DNA of 64,000 nt from Longimicrobiales bacterium (lineage in GTDB: Bacteria; Gemmatimonadota; Gemmatimonadetes; Longimicrobiales; Gaopeijiaceae): NCBI GenBank assembly GCA_965248195.1, contig CBDFIQ010000001.1, positions 672,001-736,000 on the forward strand. Direction: 5' to 3'. This document shows positions 42,001-54,000 of the stretch, piece by piece. Position numbers: made by a program. The number at the start of each line of letters is the position of its first letter. Position 1 is the stretch's first letter.

Positions 42001-45000
42001 TCGGCAGCCGGGGGACTCCCTTGGACCATCGCGCTCTCGAAGTCGTCGATGAGCCGAATCCAGACCGTTTCCGGTTCACCTCCGCAGGCGGCAGCGAGGG
42101 GCGTGAGAGCGAGGAGGAGAAGCAGGATCTTGCGCATGGAGATCTCCGGTGTGCAACGCTTTGGGGAAGGATCAATTTTCCGGTTTGGTGCGGAGACCAA
42201 AGTAGATGCTCGGTGCTCCGGATGCGACAGCGATCCCGAGCGGATCAGTGTCATGAGCCTCATCGCGTTAATTCCACCGGGGTTGCCGGGCGCCCGTGTC
42301 CCCCTGCTGGGCGTCGTCGCCTTTGGCGTGATGGCGGACGCCTGCTATCTGCTGGGGCCTGCCGTCGAGATCGCTCTTGAGAAGCTTGCCCCCCCGATCA
42401 CTCTCGAACACGTTACGGTTCCCTCATCCCGCTTCTGCGGAGAGGGTGAACTACGTCCGCCACCGGCCGGAGACGGTCGCGAACGGTTTTTCCGACCTCA
42501 TATGCCCGAAAGTATTATAGAGGGTCTCCGGATCCATATCGACCGCGACCTCTGTGTCAGCTTCGGGGACTGCATCGAAGCAGCTCCAGGCGTCTTCGAG
42601 TTCGACGACGAGGAAATCGCGGTCTTCGTGAGTGACGCGGGACCGATCAGTCGGGAAGGATTGATCGAGGCCTGCGCTTCTTGTCCCGTAGACGCACTGA
42701 CGGCATTCGACGAAGAGGGAGAGCCACTCGCTCCGTAGGAGCGTCGCCCGAGAGGGACCCGCTCCCGGGGCCCCTTGGAAAACCATGAATCCCATGCGAA
42801 AGATTCGAACCTACCAGGACGTCACCCACGACACCGGCTCGGGCCTGCTCGAGCAGGTTGTGGACCAGCAACACCGCCTCGCCGACCGCCTCGCTCAGGT
42901 TCGGTCGGTCGTGGCCGTCGCCAGCGGTAAGGGGGGCGTAGGAAAGAGCGCCATCACGGCCAACCTGGCCGCTGCTCTCGCGGCCAGAGGGCTCGCCGTC
43001 GGCGCCGTCGACGCGGACCTCAATGGGCCGTCGCTAGCCCGCATGTTAGGCGTGTCCGGAGCCCGCTTGGCCGATCGGCCAAGCGGAGTGGAGCCGGCAC
43101 AAAGCCCGTCCGGCGTACGGGTCATGTCCATGGAGCTGCTCCAGCAGGAAGAGGATGCTCCCCTTCGCTGGAGAGAGCCCGAAATGGGAGGGTTCATCTG
43201 GCAAAGCACGCTCGAAACGGGGGTCCTCCGGGAGTTTCTGGGGGACGTCGAGTGGGGAGAACTGGACGTGCTCCTGGTCGACGTTCCGCCTGGGACGGAC
43301 AAGATTGGACGGCTCTTGGAGCTGGTCCCAGACGTCGATCAGATGCTCCTCGTAACCACCCCCTCCGAGACGTCTCGGTTCGTCGTTTCCAAGTCCGTTC
43401 GCATGGCTCGTGAGGCCGCGGTGGGGAAGGTCGCGCTGGTTGCGAACATGGCCGGCCATACTTGCCCGGAGTGCGGCCATGTGTCCGAACTCTTTACGGG
43501 TGACGGGGCCAACCGCCTCGAAGAGGAATCCGGCGTACCGCTTTGGGCGGAGATCCCCTTCGATCCACGGCTCGGTGCGGCCACGGACTCGGGCACCCCG
43601 CTCGTGATCACGGACCCCGATGCCCACTCGAGCAGGTCGATTCTGGCATTGGCCGACCGGGTCGAAGAGCATTTCGAGATCCGGGGTGACGGGGCGGTCG
43701 AGGTCGAGGAGGCGGGCTAATGAAGTTTCTCTGTTTGGACTGCGACGACGTCATGGAGTTCGCCGAGCGGCAACTTCCTGGAGATGGAACGTTGGCCGCA
43801 GTATTTACATGCGGGTCGTGCGGACGGGAGATGGCGATGCTCACGAACCCGATGGAGACGCAGCTGGTCTCCAGCTTGGGCGTGAAGATCGGCGGACGAG
43901 AAGTCCCTACCCAGCCCATGGAACTGGCCCGGACGTCACTCGAGGGCGGCCGCGACGATGCGTTTGCCTTGTCCGAAGACATTCCCCTCGCTTCGGGCGA
44001 GGAGGCGACTCGAGGTGAGGGCGCGAGCGCCGGCGAGGCCACCGCGGCCCGCGTCGTGTGGACGTCCGAGGCCGCTGGCCGACTCGAGCGTGTGCCCAGC
44101 TTCGTCCGGGGCATGGTGAAGCGCATTTACACCGACTGGGCACGTGAGAAGGGCGTTTCGGAGATCACCCCCGACATCATGGACCGGGCTCGCACGGAGT
44201 TGGGCCTGGAAGGAATGTAGGCTTGTTCGGAGCCACAGAGCTTACCTTCACCTATCCCTCGGGCCGCCGGGGTCTAGGAAAGGTTTCTCTCGGAGGGGAC
44301 CCCGGCGACCGCGTGGTCGTGATGGGCCCAAATGGATCCGGCAAGAGCACCCTGCTTCGCCTCGTATCCACCGAGCTCCCTGCCCGCCCAGGATCGCTCA
44401 CCCTTTTCGGCCAAGCCTGCGACCCCCCTTCGAGAGCCCTCCGCAGAAGGATCGGCATCGTTCAGGATACTCCGGTCCACGCCGACGACCTCACGGGGAT
44501 GGAGAACGGCCTCCTGTTTGCCGAGCTCTACGGTTTGCTTAGGGCCGAGGCGGCGGGTGCCCTGGAGACCCTCTTCACCTCGCTCGGCCTGGACAGGGTG
44601 CTGGACGTCCCCACGAGGGAGTACTCGTACGGGATGAAGAAGAAGCTTCTCATCGCGGAGGCTTTGGTTCACGAACCCGAGATGCTCATCCTGGACGAGC
44701 CCGCGCTCGGCCTGGATCCACCTTCACGGGCAGCGCTCCATCGAATACTCGTGGAGCGCTCGGAGAAGGGTGTGTGCACGCTCGTCGCCACCAACGAACC
44801 CGCACTGGCCCAGGCACTGGCCACCACGGTGGTCCTTCTCCACGAAGGGGAGGTCGTGGCGCACGGCAGCCCCGCCGAGCTTCTGGCCAAGGTCGGCGGC
44901 GCCACGCGAATCGAAGTGCACGTCGCCGGTGCTCCGCTGGGGGTTCCCACGCCGGGCGACCCCACAGCCGCCAGCATGACGCCCGCCGACCTTACAACGA

Positions 45001-51000: not shown

Positions 51001-54000
51001 TCGTGTGGGCGACGCCGCACACGATGATCGCCAACCGGGAAGAGATCGCCGCCATGGGCGGAACGTACCACCCGCTCCTGGGTGTCCTTGGTGTCATGAG
51101 CGCCAAGAACACGGCTGTGAACATCATGATCTTGACCACGTTCCTCTCGTTCCTGCTCTACGGGCGCGCGAACAACAACCCGACGGTTCCGTGGGCCAGG
51201 ACTGGGACGATGGTGCAGGCGGCTCTGTTCGTGATCTCCGCGCTCATTGTCGTGTTCTACGGGGTGTACGGCTACTTCGTCAGCGCGATCGTTCGCATCG
51301 GTTTCTCGGTTTATCAGGTCGTGGCGGTGCTCGCGACCATCATCGGCGTGGGCGCAATTCATGTGTTCATGATGCGGGGCGCGGAGTCGCGTGGTGCGAT
51401 CCGGTGGGGTCAGATGCCCCCCCGTTCCCAGTACGCGCTGTTCATCCTAGCCGTCACGTTCACATGGCTGATGGGTCTCATGGGCTTCGCCCGGAGCGGC
51501 ATCCGCCAGCACTGGCATGTATGGGAAGTCGTGCGGGACACGAGTGAATGGGCAGAGACGCCGGCGCTCGGGTACGCGGCCGTCGTGATCTCCGCCTGTG
51601 TGCTGATCTTCTTCGTCCTCGTGGCGTTCATTTTCTGGCTCGGTGGCTTGGCCGAGAAACCGTTGGTATCGCAGGCGAGCACGGACACCTCTCCGTCACC
51701 GGGAGGGCCGGAGTTCGCTCCTGCCGCGGGCGACTGATGCAGGATTCGACGGTGGGCATACTGGCGTCGTTCGAGTACGTAGACTCGGCCGTGAACGCCA
51801 TCGGTGAGTTACGGGCGGCCGGCCTCAAGAAGATCACCGCTTACATGCCGTATCCCGAGGCTCAAATCGAAGAGGCGCTCGGGTACGATCAGAGTCCCGT
51901 CAGGGTGTGGGCGTTGGCGGGTGGGCTCTGCGGCGCTGCCGGTGGGTTCGCTCTCACGTCCTTTACCTCGATGGATTGGCCGTTGGTCACGGGTGGCAAG
52001 CCGATCCTTTCGATTCCCGCGTACGTGATCATCTCGTTCGAGATGATGGTGTTGTTCGGTGTGTTGTCTACCGTGATTGGGCTCTTCATCAACAGTCGCC
52101 TTCCTTATGTCAAGCCGATGGTCGTCTACGATCCGGAATTCAGCGCGGGCAAGTTCGGGGTCTACGTGACCGTGGCGGCGGATGGCCTCGACCGAGCCAG
52201 GGGCATCCTGAAGGGTCAGGACCCCGCTGAAATCCGGGAAGATCCGGTGGGGGTAGCCCATGCGCCGCCAGGAATCGACTTAGGACCTGAAATTCAGGAA
52301 GAGCCGGTGGGGGTGGCGCCGCCAGGATTCGAATTAGGATCTGCAATTCCGGAAGATCTGGTGGAGGGGGCCCATACGCCGCCAGGATTCGAATTAGGAT
52401 CTGAAATTCGGGAAGATCCGGTGGGGGTGGCCCATGCGTTGTCAGGATCCGACTCAGGATACGAGTCTCGCTCGATGCTGTTGGAAAACCTGAAGATTTT
52501 CGCGGTCGTGATCGGAACGCTTGCCACCTTCACGCTCGTGGCCAATTCCATTCCGCAGGTACAGTCAGAGGTGCCCGTGGACCTCAGCTTCGGCGCCAAC
52601 GTTAGCGCCGATGAGCTGATGTCGTCCGGGGAGACCCTCTTCACCGGGGCCGGCGGCTGTCTAGCCTGTCACGGGTTGGGCACGAGGGCTCCGAACCTTC
52701 TCACCGACCACGCCGGCACGGGCACGATCGGCGTCCGGTGCACGAATCGCGTGCCCGGTGAGGACTGCAAGGCATACCTTTACAGCTCGATGGTGGACCC
52801 GGGCGCCTACCTCGTGGAGGACTTCGAACCGATCATGCCCGACATGCGTCGCTCTCTCTCGAACCAGCAGATCTGGGCGCTCGTGGCCTACTTGCAGTCC
52901 GTGGGGGGCGTGGTGACCGTAACGGGTGCAGACATCGGTGTTGGCGACGATGGCTCGAGCGTGGCAGGAGCCCCGACCGCAGGGGCGCCTGCGACCGCCT
53001 CTGCGGATCCCGTCGAGATCATGCGCGCCAACGCGTGCCTCGGTTGCCACGTCCTCGCCGGAGAGGGAACAGAGATGGGTCCCCCGTTCGACGGGATGGG
53101 CGCGCGCGTGGACGCCGACTATATACGAGAATCGATTCTGGAGCCGGCGGCCGGCGCATCAGAGGGCTTCGAGACATTCTTAGGCGCAATGCCTCCGATT
53201 TTCGGCAGCCAGCTCACTGGGAGTCAGTTGGAAGCCGTCGTGCAGTTCCTGGTAAGCCAACGCTAAGGGGAGGCGAGAAACAGTGATGGGCAAGCACTTG
53301 AAGCATCCCTTCGGCCAGGCGGTCCTGGTCCTCGTGGTTTCTTACCTCTTGTTGGATTACGGAATCGCGTACATCTCGCCTTTGATCGGAATCACGAGCG
53401 ATCCGGTCCCGATCCCGAATTCCGTGCTGCTTCAGTATCTCATCACCGTAGGCGTGGGGATCCTCCTCTGGGTCAGCGACAACGATGCCCGCTGGGCTGA
53501 GTTCAAGGCGCCGATGCATCGCGTGATGGTGGACCCGGACCGGAAGACGGCTCGGAATTCGCTCATGGTGCTGGTGCCGATCCTCGTGGCGTTCGCGACC
53601 TTCAATCAGGTGAAACCCTCCGTGGCAGCGCCTGTGACCCTGCGCTCGATTCACCCGTCAGCTCCGGGCCAGTTCGACTTCCAGGGGACGACCGTGGAGC
53701 TCGCCGGCCTGGAGAATCCCTTGCGCTCGCGGGGCTCCCTGGAGGAGCACTACGAAGAAGGGAAGCGCGTCTACTATGAGAACTGTCTGGGCTGTCATGG
53801 TGACGGCCTGAACGGCCAGGGGCATTACGCGCATGGATTCAACCCTGCCCCCTTGAGCTTCCAGGACGTCGGCACCATCGCGCAGCTCGTCGAAAGCTTC
53901 GTTTTCTGGCGGATCGCGAAGGGGGGTCCCGGGCTCCCCACGGAGGGGGCCCCGTGGAACTCGGCCATGCCGGCATGGGAGGACTTCCTCACCGAAGATG

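Follow-up and report, generated by a model that had tools for sequence, protein, structure and literature searches.

Why does the gene for a bd-like (CydA-like) membrane haem protein sit directly behind genes for a radical SAM/SPASM enzyme, Fe–S proteins and several proteins that share one small domain, PCP_red? These neighbours probably form a helper set that finishes or delivers the haem of the bd-like complex and that is inherited with it in at least three bacterial phyla; our literature search found no paper describing this module. In the window (the whole stretch of 64,000 nucleotides analysed, to which all coordinates refer), the genes run on the + strand, as do all others listed here, in the order ferredoxin, Mrp-type ATPase, zinc-ribbon/PCP_red protein, ABC-2 pair, Usp–Usp–PCP_red protein, radical SAM/SPASM/PCP_red enzyme and CydA-like protein, followed by three cytochrome c genes and then caa3 genes. 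Pfam searches recovered every gene named in the first-pass annotation at its reported place and strand. The ferredoxin start at 42253 needs correction, being an in-frame extension absent in relatives; the conserved short form occupies 42502–42738.

This short form encodes a small single-cluster ferredoxin of 78 amino acids (Fer4_13 38 bits, Fer4_15 31.4 bits). It is followed by an Mrp/NBP35-type P-loop Fe–S carrier ATPase with a CPEC motif (42785–43720; ParA/NUBPL 233.8 bits), whose stop codon overlaps the start of a small adaptor protein (43720–44220; PCP_red 50.6 bits, cut-off 32.5) in the sequence TAATG. An ABC transporter ATPase (44223–45230; ABC_tran 89.9 bits; top NCBIfam match DrrA-type, under cut-off) and an ABC-2 type permease (45227–45940; ABC2_membrane 39.7 bits), with a GTGA gene overlap, are optional parts. 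Upstream of the Usp gene lies a promoter-like site, TTGACA-18-TATACT (45974–46003; 11 of 12 consensus matches), which three genomes with diverged flanks share without change in both hexamers and in most of the spacer. The Usp gene (46379–48529) encodes tandem Usp domains (100.1 bits), two PCP_red domains (52.9 bits, the second weak at 22.3 bits) and a cysteine-bearing C-terminal region. From it, overlapping stop and start codons run through the radical SAM gene (48526–49959; Radical_SAM 94, SPASM 37.5, C-terminal PCP_red 51.4 bits), which has GTGA and ATGA overlaps with its flanking genes, and the CydA-like gene (49956–51737) to a gene for ActD fused to two cytochrome c domains (51737–53266; ActD 140.4, Cytochrom_C 53.9 bits). 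Beyond these are genes for a membrane-anchored monohaem cytochrome c (53283–54092; Cytochrome_CBB3 35.8 bits), a dihaem cytochrome c fused to EB_dh, a periplasmic cytochrome b (54089–55717; Cytochrom_C 72.4, EB_dh 66.2 bits; NCBIfam DMSO reductase type II haem b subunit 87.8 bits, under cut-off), a lipoprotein-like protein with a CarboxypepD_reg domain (55805–56650; Pfam 39.1 bits) and the caa3-type oxidase proteins COX2, COX1, COX3 and COX4 (56749–60174; 58.4, 487.7, 95 and, for COX4_pro, 51.7 bits).

Searches of the whole genome, which is 91.8% complete, place these components here alone: PCP_red has four matches in three proteins, all inside this operon, Cyt_bd_oxida_I has a single match, also here, and Cyt_bd_oxida_II (CydB) has none. 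The CydA-like protein (593 amino acids, OR-N type; Cyt_bd_oxida_I 83.1 bits, cut-off 26.2) matches profile positions 3–243 of 418 and keeps a GRQPW-like motif. Its H52, H220 and E139 align with residues that we take to be His19, His186 and Glu107 of CydA (Escherichia coli numbering).

The gene order recurs in 65 Gemmatimonadota loci collected independently, by the CydA-like protein and not by the radical SAM enzyme. Of the 62 loci that reach 1.5 kb or more upstream, 61 have the radical SAM gene immediately 5′ of the CydA-like gene; in the exception (L025) it is absent between the Usp and CydA-like genes. The Usp–PCP_red gene immediately precedes the radical SAM gene in all 46 of 46 loci, and where enough flank was present the Mrp, small PCP_red and ferredoxin genes lie upstream (41/41), with the ABC pair in 11 of these 41. 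On the other side, the ActD–cytochrome c gene comes next after the CydA-like gene in 67 of 68 loci and COX1 is downstream in 43 of 44. The lipoprotein-like gene is kept 5′ of COX2 in Gemmatimonadota and Methylomirabilota, and the monohaem cytochrome c in all three phyla.

Co-occurrence at the genome level is strict in two phyla and nearly so in the third. Among 251 Gemmatimonadota genomes, 72 have the CydA-like protein and exactly the same 72 have the PCP_red-bearing type of radical SAM enzyme (at least 497 bits). Acidobacteriota have the CydA-like protein in 15 of 201 genomes, with the enzyme complete in 14, partial in one and found in 0 of the 186 others. Of the 79 Methylomirabilota genomes (of 121) with the CydA-like protein, 74 have a radical SAM match and the remaining five have PCP_red. 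Because it holds across genomes in three phyla, the association is far beyond chance, and supports the view that the module genuinely belongs with, and is dedicated to, the bd-like gene cluster. A few genomes depart from the pattern: two have matches to the PCP_red-bearing enzyme without a Cyt_bd match (G525, G567); another has such matches and no bd-like match, only a pair of canonical CydA genes and a weak Cyt_bd match of 36 bits (G512); two have partial enzyme matches without a bd-like gene (G055, G183); and one has CydA-like paralogues and one PCP_red protein with no radical SAM match at threshold (G485).

The linkage persists through rearrangements, at varying positions. The first-pass annotation regarded the CydA-like gene as locked behind the radical SAM gene, which is true of Gemmatimonadota, where the module is 5′ of the cluster, but not of Methylomirabilota and Acidobacteriota. 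There the module is 6 to 29 kb from the CydA-like gene, at times behind inserted unrelated genes, and lies 3′ of the cluster in Rokubacteria (4 of 4) and Acidobacteriota (7 of 7). Nor does the lock extend to more distant CydA-like genes (31–50% identity): of 80 metagenome loci scored for local neighbourhood, only one has the module adjacent, and the count is likewise one among the 13 that extend 8 kb or more to either side.

What the module serves can be narrowed down from these rearrangements. In Acidobacteriota the Usp–PCP_red gene adjoins the cytochrome c/EB_dh gene, the ActD part is absent from the ActD–cytochrome c counterpart, and the same-strand cluster contains the module and the bd-like core with no COX gene in any of the seven genomes examined, which excludes the caa3 genes as the client. 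Two cytochromes c and the cytochrome c/EB_dh fusion accompany the CydA-like protein everywhere. The varying location and the clusters without COX genes thus indicate that the module is tied to a core of bd-like protein, cytochromes c and periplasmic cytochrome b, which is of a known kind (TO_1, OR-N), and not provably to the CydA-like protein itself. With the cluster passed on as one block, co-occurrence does not reveal which one of its four constant membrane or periplasmic proteins is the client; the proposal of a dedicated module stands for the bd-like cluster in three phyla, without singling out the CydA-like protein. No need for such a module is known for canonical bd oxidases or other EB_dh proteins, which counts against the proposal.

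It has also been proposed that the radical SAM enzyme acts on tetrapyrroles, and its sequence supports placement in the side-chain group of AhbD, NirJ2 and TIGR04053, although not as an ordinary AhbD. A rerun against NCBIfam gave the same top curated matches, NirJ2 at 288.0 and AhbD at 276.1 bits (cut-off 500 for both), followed by TIGR04053 at 259.4 bits, also under cut-off. The CX3CX2C motif and eight SPASM cysteines are invariant in 76 orthologues, and the cysteine pattern is the same as in AhbD-near paralogues that lack PCP_red. In a tree, 25 PCP_red-bearing enzymes sampled from three phyla separate from five such paralogues with branch support of 99/98, in an alignment that retained tail columns and thereby favours this split. 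The two groups also differ at positions invariant within each (N43/E, Y56/R, G120/A and K255/T, PCP_red-bearing enzymes first). By sequence, the PCP_red-bearing type forms its own clade next to AhbD and reaches no curated cut-off.

The host genome encodes ferrochelatase and ChdC, as previously noted, and because of ChdC bulk haem b does not depend on the radical SAM enzyme. The further claim that the module is separate from the coproporphyrin pathway is doubtful. Among Gemmatimonadota, a ChdC match accompanies the cluster in 65 of 72 genomes, versus 41 of the 179 genomes that lack the cluster, and in at least nine Gemmatimonadales loci a ChdC–Rieske gene belongs to the same supercluster, behind COX4 and CtaB. 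The enrichment fits a substrate from the coproporphyrin pathway, on which the module more likely draws.

The same evidence could favour a simpler account, already raised in the first-pass annotation, in which the enzyme is an ordinary O2-independent coproheme decarboxylase, an AhbD-type isozyme of ChdC that supplies bulk haem b under shortage of oxygen or peroxide and sits beside a high-affinity respiratory cluster for co-regulation only. Its best curated matches, its SPASM cysteines, the host pathway and the ChdC enrichment all agree with this, as does the presence of AhbD in coproporphyrin-pathway organisms without other Ahb enzymes, described in a 2026 review (PMC13564367). However, the enzyme tracks the bd-like gene and not the haem pathway, as 41 Gemmatimonadota genomes have ChdC without cluster or enzyme, and it is always accompanied by three further dedicated proteins. 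Paralogues without PCP_red in the same phyla are nearer AhbD (422–438 bits versus 276–311); in one family (f10) 9 of 11 genomes have them and none of the 11 yielded a ChdC match, which makes them look like the general enzyme. The PCP_red-bearing type is altered at residues invariant in these paralogues and falls under every curated cut-off. The account is weakened accordingly, and we consider it unlikely.

Alternatively, the enzyme could be a SPASM maturase that introduces a cross-link or other modification into a subunit of the complex or into the PCP_red proteins, with PCP_red for recognition or docking. Most structure-solved SPASM matches act on peptides or cofactor precursors (SkfB, PqqE), and one small domain on both enzyme and partners may resemble leader-recognition schemes. 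This is quite improbable, as curated peptide-maturase families score at most 131 bits versus 259–288 for the tetrapyrrole enzymes, the loci compared yielded no conserved short precursor gene in the module, and the other known setting of PCP_red is a tetrapyrrole enzyme. Fe–S proteins are common oxygen sensors, and of all genes next to the membrane genes that for the tandem Usp protein is the most constant; the Usp, Fe–S and ferredoxin proteins might signal energy or redox state and adjust how the respiratory cluster is assembled or how active it is, with no cofactor being produced. Yet domain searches found no DNA-binding or signalling output domain in any module protein, and the strict conservation of a complete radical SAM/SPASM catalytic set argues for catalysis, making a sensing device very improbable. 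A role for the caa3 oxidase or the whole supercluster, for example in the haem a branch, would fit the same-strand COX genes that follow in Gemmatimonadota and in 9 of 11 other loci, the Rokubacteria module directly behind COX3, and the COX1 of this cluster, the only one recovered in the genome with the query used. It is extremely doubtful given the Acidobacteriota clusters and an NC10 locus (L073/L201) in which no COX gene was seen; moreover, the haem a branch has its own enzyme, CtaB, whose gene adjoins COX4 in L026.

We give an even chance to a dedicated cytoplasmic, O2-independent module for finishing haem and handing it over to the bd-like cytochrome complex, its substrate, chemistry, client protein and the role of PCP_red being inferred from domains, gene order and distribution. 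The complex served would be a putative terminal oxidase (TO_1/OR-N) composed of the CydA-like membrane protein, two cytochromes c and the cytochrome c/periplasmic cytochrome b protein. The enzyme, a relative of AhbD, NirJ and AhbC, which cleave side chains off iron tetrapyrroles, would most likely carry out an O2-independent, AhbD-like oxidative decarboxylation of coproheme from the host pathway, or a related tailoring, and its product would pass to the complex during assembly. Ferredoxin may supply the electron for SAM cleavage, and the Mrp protein may load the three 4Fe–4S clusters of the enzyme. This Mrp falls short of the cut-offs of both MrpORP (212.9 bits against 450) and ApbC (157.5 bits against 348); a second, unlinked paralogue of 38% identity elsewhere in the genome marks the operon copy as an extra one.

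The small adaptor protein may connect these parts. It consists of an N-terminal four-cysteine zinc ribbon (C5, C8, C31 and C34, invariant in 33 orthologues), a conserved segment, a variable linker and a C-terminal PCP_red, and solved structures of ChlB/BchB align with it at their C-terminus; the 45-residue PCP_red of the module proteins corresponds to the C-terminal domain of BchB in protochlorophyllide reductase. Through the adaptor, Mrp, the Usp protein and the radical SAM enzyme would all bear this domain, a possible common tether or lid that gathers the parts at one tetrapyrrole or one partner. A model of two Mrp subunits with the adaptor scored 0.69 versus 0.01 for the best control, a level that 116 of 157 solved complexes attain, compared with 2 of 215 mismatched pairs (a rough calibration, using our own alignments); the runs share at least 81% of contacts, with a partner pLDDT of at least 77. 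The predicted interface comprises residues 1–85 of the adaptor and only four residues of PCP_red, which supports Mrp binding to the zinc-ribbon half and would leave PCP_red free.

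Pfam matches and translations place the genes listed by the first-pass annotation on the forward strand in the order that it gave. The row begins with a 78-aa ferredoxin (42502–42738), an Mrp/NUBPL-type ATPase (42785–43720) and a 166-aa adaptor that joins a four-cysteine zinc ribbon to a C-terminal PCP_red domain (43720–44220), each identified by Pfam and translation, and continues with an ABC ATPase and an ABC-2 permease (44223–45940). After a gap of about 430 bp come, by their Pfam domains, a Usp-Usp-PCP_red protein (46379–48529), a radical SAM/SPASM/PCP_red enzyme (48526–49959) and the 593-aa CydA-like protein (49956–51737). 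We refer to the genes from the ferredoxin to the radical SAM enzyme as the module, in which the ABC pair is optional. Immediately 3′ of the CydA-like gene, Pfam identifies a dihaem cytochrome c fused to ActD, a second cytochrome c and a further dihaem cytochrome c fused to EB_dh, all on the same strand, which together with the CydA-like protein form the bd-like core; a CarboxypepD_reg lipoprotein-like protein (55805–56650) separates the EB_dh gene from the caa3 genes COX2, COX1 (57435–59231), COX3 and COX4.

Stop and start codons overlap between Mrp and adaptor (TAATG), Usp and radical SAM (GTGA), radical SAM and CydA-like (ATGA), CydA-like and ActD (TGATG) and cytochrome c and EB_dh genes (ATGA). 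A promoter-like site (TTGACA-18-TATACT, 45974–46003), which matches 11 of 12 consensus positions, lies ahead of the Usp gene, and its hexamers and most of its spacer are unchanged in three genomes with diverged flanks. The genes probably form two units, one from the ferredoxin to the permease and one from the Usp gene to the oxidase genes. Within the gap (45941–46378), a leader of approximately 375 nt separates the promoter-like site from the Usp-PCP_red start. We rejected a riboswitch in this leader because it has no Rfam match (E up to 0.1, 41500–61500 scanned) and folds no better than shuffled sequences (z 0.41). Short contigs of relatives (mostly 88–95% alike) from runs labelled as metatranscriptomes cover all of the genes; this material consists of assembled contigs only, with small shares, and gives no measure of transcription, transcript starts or levels.

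The CydA-like protein matches Pfam PF01654 at 83.1 bits (cut-off, 26.2), and its H52 and H220, which align with haem-ligand histidines, vary little or not at all among 22 diverse relatives. In E. coli CydA numbering these are the positions of His19 and His186. The match ends at profile position 243 of 418, with no match to the Q-loop, and the score against the NCBIfam CydA equivalog is 26.6 bits (cut-off, 968). The first-pass annotation had described this as the only cytochrome bd subunit I-like gene, without a CydB, and whole-genome matches bear this out (one for Cyt_bd_oxida_I, none for Cyt_bd_oxida_II; genome completeness, 91.8%). The protein thus does not fit a canonical quinol-oxidizing CydAB, which has a Q-loop/quinol site in CydA and a CydB partner. 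With these absences, and with the equivalents of His19 and His186 kept, it resembles the OR-N and TO_1 oxidases, a likeness judged from these features.

The OR-N family is defined in the bd-superfamily preprint of Murali, Gennis and Hemp; members of its OR-N2 subfamily, which is assigned by the authors' own HMMs, have about 14 helices and often occur without a second CydA-like gene, and the genome studied here has a single one. The Nitrospina genome paper describes bd-like proteins of 14 helices in which the haem b ligands are retained and the quinol site is missing. TO_1 is described in the Manganitrophaceae preprint (10.1101/2021.11.15.468770) as highly expressed and as comprising a bd-like oxidase, two cytochromes c and a periplasmic cytochrome b. 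The window has the corresponding genes in a row (CydA-like, ActD-cytochrome c, cytochrome c, cytochrome c/EB_dh), and thus the make-up given for the TO_1 complex of Ca. Manganitrophaceae and Nitrospirota. The window complex differs from OR-N/TO_1 in its attached ActD domain and, in two phyla, in its linkage to caa3 genes. As the first-pass annotation had reported, the main text of the bd-superfamily preprint contains no mention of radical SAM (0 mentions), and the main texts of the Manganitrophaceae, Nitrospina genome and Nitrospinota comparison works name no such partner either. A full-text literature search found no description of the helper module, although figures and supplements of the bd-superfamily journal article may show these neighbours. 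The membrane half is of a known kind, and the helper module is undescribed in the literature searched.

To compare gene order in relatives, we fetched 80 loci with an alignment of 11 CydA-like sequences (A2), the 22-sequence alignment being too diverse for a locus search; 65 are from Gemmatimonadota and 15 from other phyla, mostly Methylomirabilota. Because the CydA-like protein and not the radical SAM enzyme was the query, the Gemmatimonadota set is independent of the one used previously. The radical SAM gene lies immediately 5′ of the CydA-like gene in all but one (L025) of the 62 Gemmatimonadota loci that have sufficient flanking sequence (61 of 62), Usp-PCP_red immediately 5′ of the radical SAM gene in 46/46, and Mrp, adaptor and ferredoxin upstream in 41/41; the ABC pair is found in 11 of 41. 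The one-strand order directly before the CydA-like gene, which the first-pass annotation had described, thus holds in Gemmatimonadota, whereas the position of the module relative to this gene differs in Methylomirabilota and Acidobacteriota. In L025 (1–4571), the sole Gemmatimonadota contig without a radical SAM gene at this position, Usp-PCP_red and CydA-like genes are about 670 bp apart.

The 15 loci from other phyla retain the CydA-like, ActD-cytochrome c, cytochrome c and cytochrome c/EB_dh genes, usually with COX genes, and among them only an NC10 locus (L073) has the module upstream of the CydA-like gene. PCP_red is present in five genomes whose loci lack the upstream module, and Usp-PCP_red, radical SAM-PCP_red and Mrp lie just 3′ of COX3 in four such genomes with long enough contigs. 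In these four genomes, which are Rokubacteria, a small PCP_red gene lies on a separate contig. Seven Acidobacteriota genomes have the order cytochrome c, CydA-like, cytochrome c, cytochrome c, cytochrome c/EB_dh, Usp-PCP_red, and then Mrp, adaptor and radical SAM, the two groups being at times split by unrelated inserted genes. From the gene orders in Gemmatimonadota, Methylomirabilota and Acidobacteriota, the constant set is the four-gene bd-like core with Usp-PCP_red, Mrp and the radical SAM enzyme; the gene after Mrp is the adaptor in Gemmatimonadota, in NC10 and in the majority of Acidobacteriota clusters.

Phylum-wide tallies follow the same association. CydA-like matches occur in 72 of 251 Gemmatimonadota genomes, and radical SAM matches of at least 497 bits that run through the PCP_red tail occur in exactly the same 72. 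Two further genomes (G055 and G183) have partial radical SAM matches without a bd-like gene, and weaker matches (32–37% identity, no tail) represent a different paralogue. In Acidobacteriota, 15 of 201 genomes carry the CydA-like gene; the PCP_red-tailed radical SAM type is full in 14 of these, partial in one (G429) and found in 0 of the 186 others. The Methylomirabilota tally is less exact than these two: the CydA-like gene occurs in 79 of 121 genomes and, among the matches listed, at least 74 of the 79 have a radical SAM match (E 1e-40 or better), with PCP_red present in all of the remaining five. Also among the matches listed, three Methylomirabilota genomes have matches of the PCP_red-tailed type without a bd-like match; one (G512) carries two canonical CydA genes together with a single weak Cyt_bd match of 36 bits, and the others (G525 and G567) have no Cyt_bd match. 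These counts include unpublished genomes (G185 among the 72; G307 and G405 among the 15; G505, G546, G488 and G515 among the 79), without which the carriers number 71/250 in Gemmatimonadota, 13/199 in Acidobacteriota and 75/117 in Methylomirabilota. Related genomes do not count as independent cases, and the cluster travels as one unit; the counts show co-inheritance and do not tell which gene the module serves.

By curated family models, the radical SAM enzyme is nearest to the enzymes of haem synthesis. Its scores against NirJ2 (TIGR04055, 288.0 bits) and the haem b synthase AhbD (TIGR04545, 276.1 bits) reproduce the first-pass values exactly and lie below the cut-off of 500 in both cases; the score for the radical SAM/SPASM family TIGR04053 is 259.4 bits (cut-off, 395). 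Orthologues from two other phyla reach 297–311 bits against AhbD, giving a range of 276–311 over three phyla. The CX3CX2C motif (C48, C52 and C55) and eight SPASM cysteines are invariant in 76 orthologues, and the same pattern occurs in AhbD-near paralogues; the title of Fix et al. (2023) attributes two auxiliary 4Fe–4S clusters to AhbD. With this motif, a full eight-cysteine SPASM domain and the best curated matches over the whole radical SAM core, the enzyme resembles AhbD and NirJ2, and its host makes coproheme, the substrate of AhbD, as ChdC and ferrochelatase are encoded elsewhere in the genome. No solved AhbD structure matched the enzyme by sequence, the nearest being SkfB and PqqE.

It differs from AhbD in its sub-cut-off score, its PCP_red tail and its separation from related enzymes without the tail. 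Two kinds of such PCP-less paralogues exist in the same phyla: members of TIGR04053 (446–448 bits, cut-off 395), which are separate genes in cluster-bearing relatives, and AhbD-near proteins (422–438 bits against AhbD). In a maximum-likelihood tree, 25 PCP-bearing enzymes and five paralogues fall on opposite sides of a branch with support of 99/98, although the tail columns were kept, which favours this split, and long branches meet at the paralogues. Four positions that are invariant within each group differ between the PCP type and the paralogues: N43/E, Y56/R (next to the cluster motif), G120/A and K255/T. A further difference from AhbD is that the enzyme is co-inherited with a respiratory complex and three partner proteins, and not with haem pathway genes. 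In Rokubacteria, the PCP_red-tailed radical SAM genes (L100–L103) match the window enzyme in two pieces with a break near residue 248, suggesting that an insertion separates the radical SAM core from the SPASM domain.

In dark-operative protochlorophyllide reductase (DPOR), the PCP_red domain covers the pigment in trans. The module domains score 50.6 (adaptor), 52.9 (Usp protein) and 51.4 bits (radical SAM enzyme) against PF08369 (cut-off, 32.5). They are clearly homologous to the C-terminal domain of BchB/ChlB, aligning with residues 456–510 of ChlB (2xdq_B, E 6.5e-07; the last 55 residues of ChlB/BchB in DPOR), and are also homologous to stand-alone proteins of 62–63 residues with solved structures (2kru and 2l09). 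In contrast to BchB/ChlB, they are joined to a radical SAM enzyme, a USP protein and a zinc-ribbon adaptor. All four PCP_red matches in the genome, in three proteins, lie in the window operon, and the genome thus has no nitrogenase-like BchN/BchB core.

The adaptor appears to bring this domain to Mrp. Its zinc-ribbon cysteines and the segment after them show little or no variation among 33 orthologues, and in most of the listed loci, which come from all three phyla, the adaptor start codon overlaps or directly adjoins the Mrp stop. When two Mrp chains were modelled as a complex with the adaptor, alongside controls, the prediction scored 0.69 (best control, 0.01); 116 of 157 solved complexes and 2 of 215 mismatched pairs score as high, a calibration that is approximate here because our own alignments were used. 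At least 81% of contacts are common to the runs, and the partner pLDDT is at least 77. The predicted interface joins adaptor residues 1–85 to Mrp residues 92–154 and the Mrp N terminus, and only four PCP_red residues touch it; the adaptor therefore seems, in this model, to hang a free PCP_red domain on Mrp, through which all soluble parts of the module would carry one. The CXXC motif of the Mrp/ApbC/NBP35 family holds a bridging cluster. The window Mrp has the P-loop ATPase fold of this family (PF10609, 233.8 bits; cut-off, 27.1) and such a motif (CPEC in the translation). It differs from Mrp, ApbC and MrpORP in being an extra paralogue (a second Mrp elsewhere in the genome shares 38% identity), in scoring below the equivalog cut-offs (MrpORP, 212.9 versus 450 bits; ApbC, 157.5 versus 348 bits) and in its translational coupling to an adaptor that is predicted to bind it.

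The best-supported reading is that the helper genes are a dedicated cofactor module for the bd-like core, a function that we infer. The AhbD-like enzyme would carry out an oxygen-independent step on an iron tetrapyrrole, most likely coproheme, with the ferredoxin supplying electrons, the private Mrp supplying clusters and the PCP_red domains acting as a common tether or lid. The first-pass annotation had proposed a tetrapyrrole tailoring or insertion module for the CydA-like oxidase, separate from the coproporphyrin haem pathway; the idea of a dedicated companion of the bd-like core stands, but co-inheritance does not single out the CydA-like gene as the one served. The chief alternative is that the enzyme serves as a general anaerobic haem b synthase; its basis is the statement of a 2026 review (PMC13564367) that AhbD occurs in coproporphyrin-pathway organisms without other Ahb enzymes. 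This alternative is weakened by the distribution of the PCP_red-tailed enzyme, by the occurrence, in the same phyla, of proteins more likely to be AhbD, and by the altered invariant residues, although its chemistry may well equal that of the dedicated module. Service to the caa3 oxidase, the COX1 gene of which lies downstream in 43 of 44 Gemmatimonadota loci and which has no genes on the cluster strand in the seven Acidobacteriota genomes, is less likely, as are modification of a protein by the radical SAM enzyme and a sensing role of the module.

An extension of the dedicated-module reading, which we consider unlikely, is that the enzyme makes a novel haem derivative (such as one that has lost only some of its carboxyl groups or whose propionates are tailored differently) that is the O2-reacting cofactor of bd-like (OR-N/TO_1) oxidases and is carried to the complex by a relay of PCP_red chaperones. 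If so, the bd-like oxidases of nitrite and manganese oxidizers would have their own haem type and biosynthetic branch, like haem a for haem–copper oxidases, and a new haem would mean a new branch of tetrapyrrole biosynthesis. If the product is plain haem b, the module would be the first private oxygen-independent haem supply wired to a single respiratory complex. In Nitrospira, Nitrospina and Ca. Manganitrophus, the terminal oxidase is presumed to be of the bd-like kind, and such oxidases are also widespread among phyla of soil and sediment. A strictly co-inherited module centred on a haem enzyme offers a concrete handle on their cofactors, electron donors and assembly: a soluble, expressible enzyme, partners with testable binding and genes whose loss should specifically disable the complex. 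Additionally, the orphan PCP_red domain gains a testable role outside chlorophyll synthesis, and the module may exemplify a dedicated Mrp paralogue with its own adaptor.

Cofactor branches beside an oxidase have precedents in CtaA/CtaB for haem–copper oxidases and CydDC for cytochrome bd. By analogy, the oxidase cluster carries enzymes that would finish its own haem, although the CtaA/CtaB and CydDC families are unrelated to those of the module. For example, in one locus (L026), CtaB and ChdC–Rieske genes come after COX4: a fusion of ChdC (Chlor_dismutase) to a C-terminal Rieske 2Fe–2S domain (20315–21391, plus strand) lies behind COX4 and a UbiA-family (CtaB-like) gene (19105–19911, plus strand). 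ChdC genes lie 3′ of the COX genes on the same strand in nine Gemmatimonadales loci and upstream of Mrp in one (L031). ChdC is present in 106 of 251 Gemmatimonadota genomes, which by a comparison of lists comprise 65 of 72 cluster carriers versus 41 of 179 others (the unpublished G185, G100 and G160 are among the positives). Family f10 has ChdC in 0 of 11 genomes and an AhbD-near PCP-less radical SAM protein in 9 of 11. Given this distribution and the ChdC and CtaB-like neighbours, the supercluster tends to carry haem-finishing genes and module hosts mostly make coproheme. No HemY-like oxidase was found by Pfam in the window operon or in the cassettes of L193, L196 and L197 (Acidobacteriota), L102 (Rokubacteria) or L201 (NC10).

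A tblastn search with COX1 returned only the cluster gene in the whole genome (E 1e-5), so the caa3 oxidase may be the only A-type haem–copper oxidase of the organism. A bc-type cytochrome b is encoded elsewhere (contig 1, 1175836–1176366), and we therefore dropped the idea that the bd-like core replaces complex III. About 290 bp 3′ of COX4, a 320-aa ORF (60467–61429, plus strand) has no family at E 0.001 and a weak Pyr4-TMTC match (0.0037), and could encode another membrane component of the cluster or a factor for its assembly. The CarboxypepD_reg protein before COX2 is kept in Gemmatimonadota and Methylomirabilota, with a second copy ahead of Usp-PCP_red in Rokubacteria. In Acidobacteriota, a GNAT acetyltransferase gene lies directly 5′ of Mrp in both loci scanned (L193, 12565–13464, plus strand; L196, 5491–6342, minus strand), and in L193 genes for a PD40 propeller, an amidohydrolase and an MFS transporter are inserted between Usp-PCP_red and Mrp. 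In a third locus (L197, 12453–14477, plus strand), the radical SAM gene is followed by genes for a multicopper oxidase of three domains and for a CarboxypepD_reg protein that weakly matches cupredoxin, recalling the copper proteins reported beside bd-like genes in Nitrospina.

More distant relatives were sampled by searching metagenome contigs with a distant CydA-like alignment, which gave 80 loci at 31–50% identity to the window protein. The window module proteins match one of these (L138), which is one of the 13 with at least 8 kb on both sides; because contigs and not genomes were covered, the module may lie elsewhere in the genomes concerned. Two Gemmatimonadota loci (L104, 6300–15500; L105, 700–16400) encode a second CydA-like paralogue of about 53% identity, apparently fused to a cytochrome c part, with cytochrome c, EB_dh and two CarboxypepD_reg genes as neighbours; no module or COX genes lie beside these paralogues, and their genomes have a single PCP_red-tailed radical SAM gene. 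Atlas clusters of radical SAM/SPASM/PCP_red proteins have Gemmatimonadota, Nitrospinota or Acidobacteriota as their commonest phylum, which we give as a lead only.
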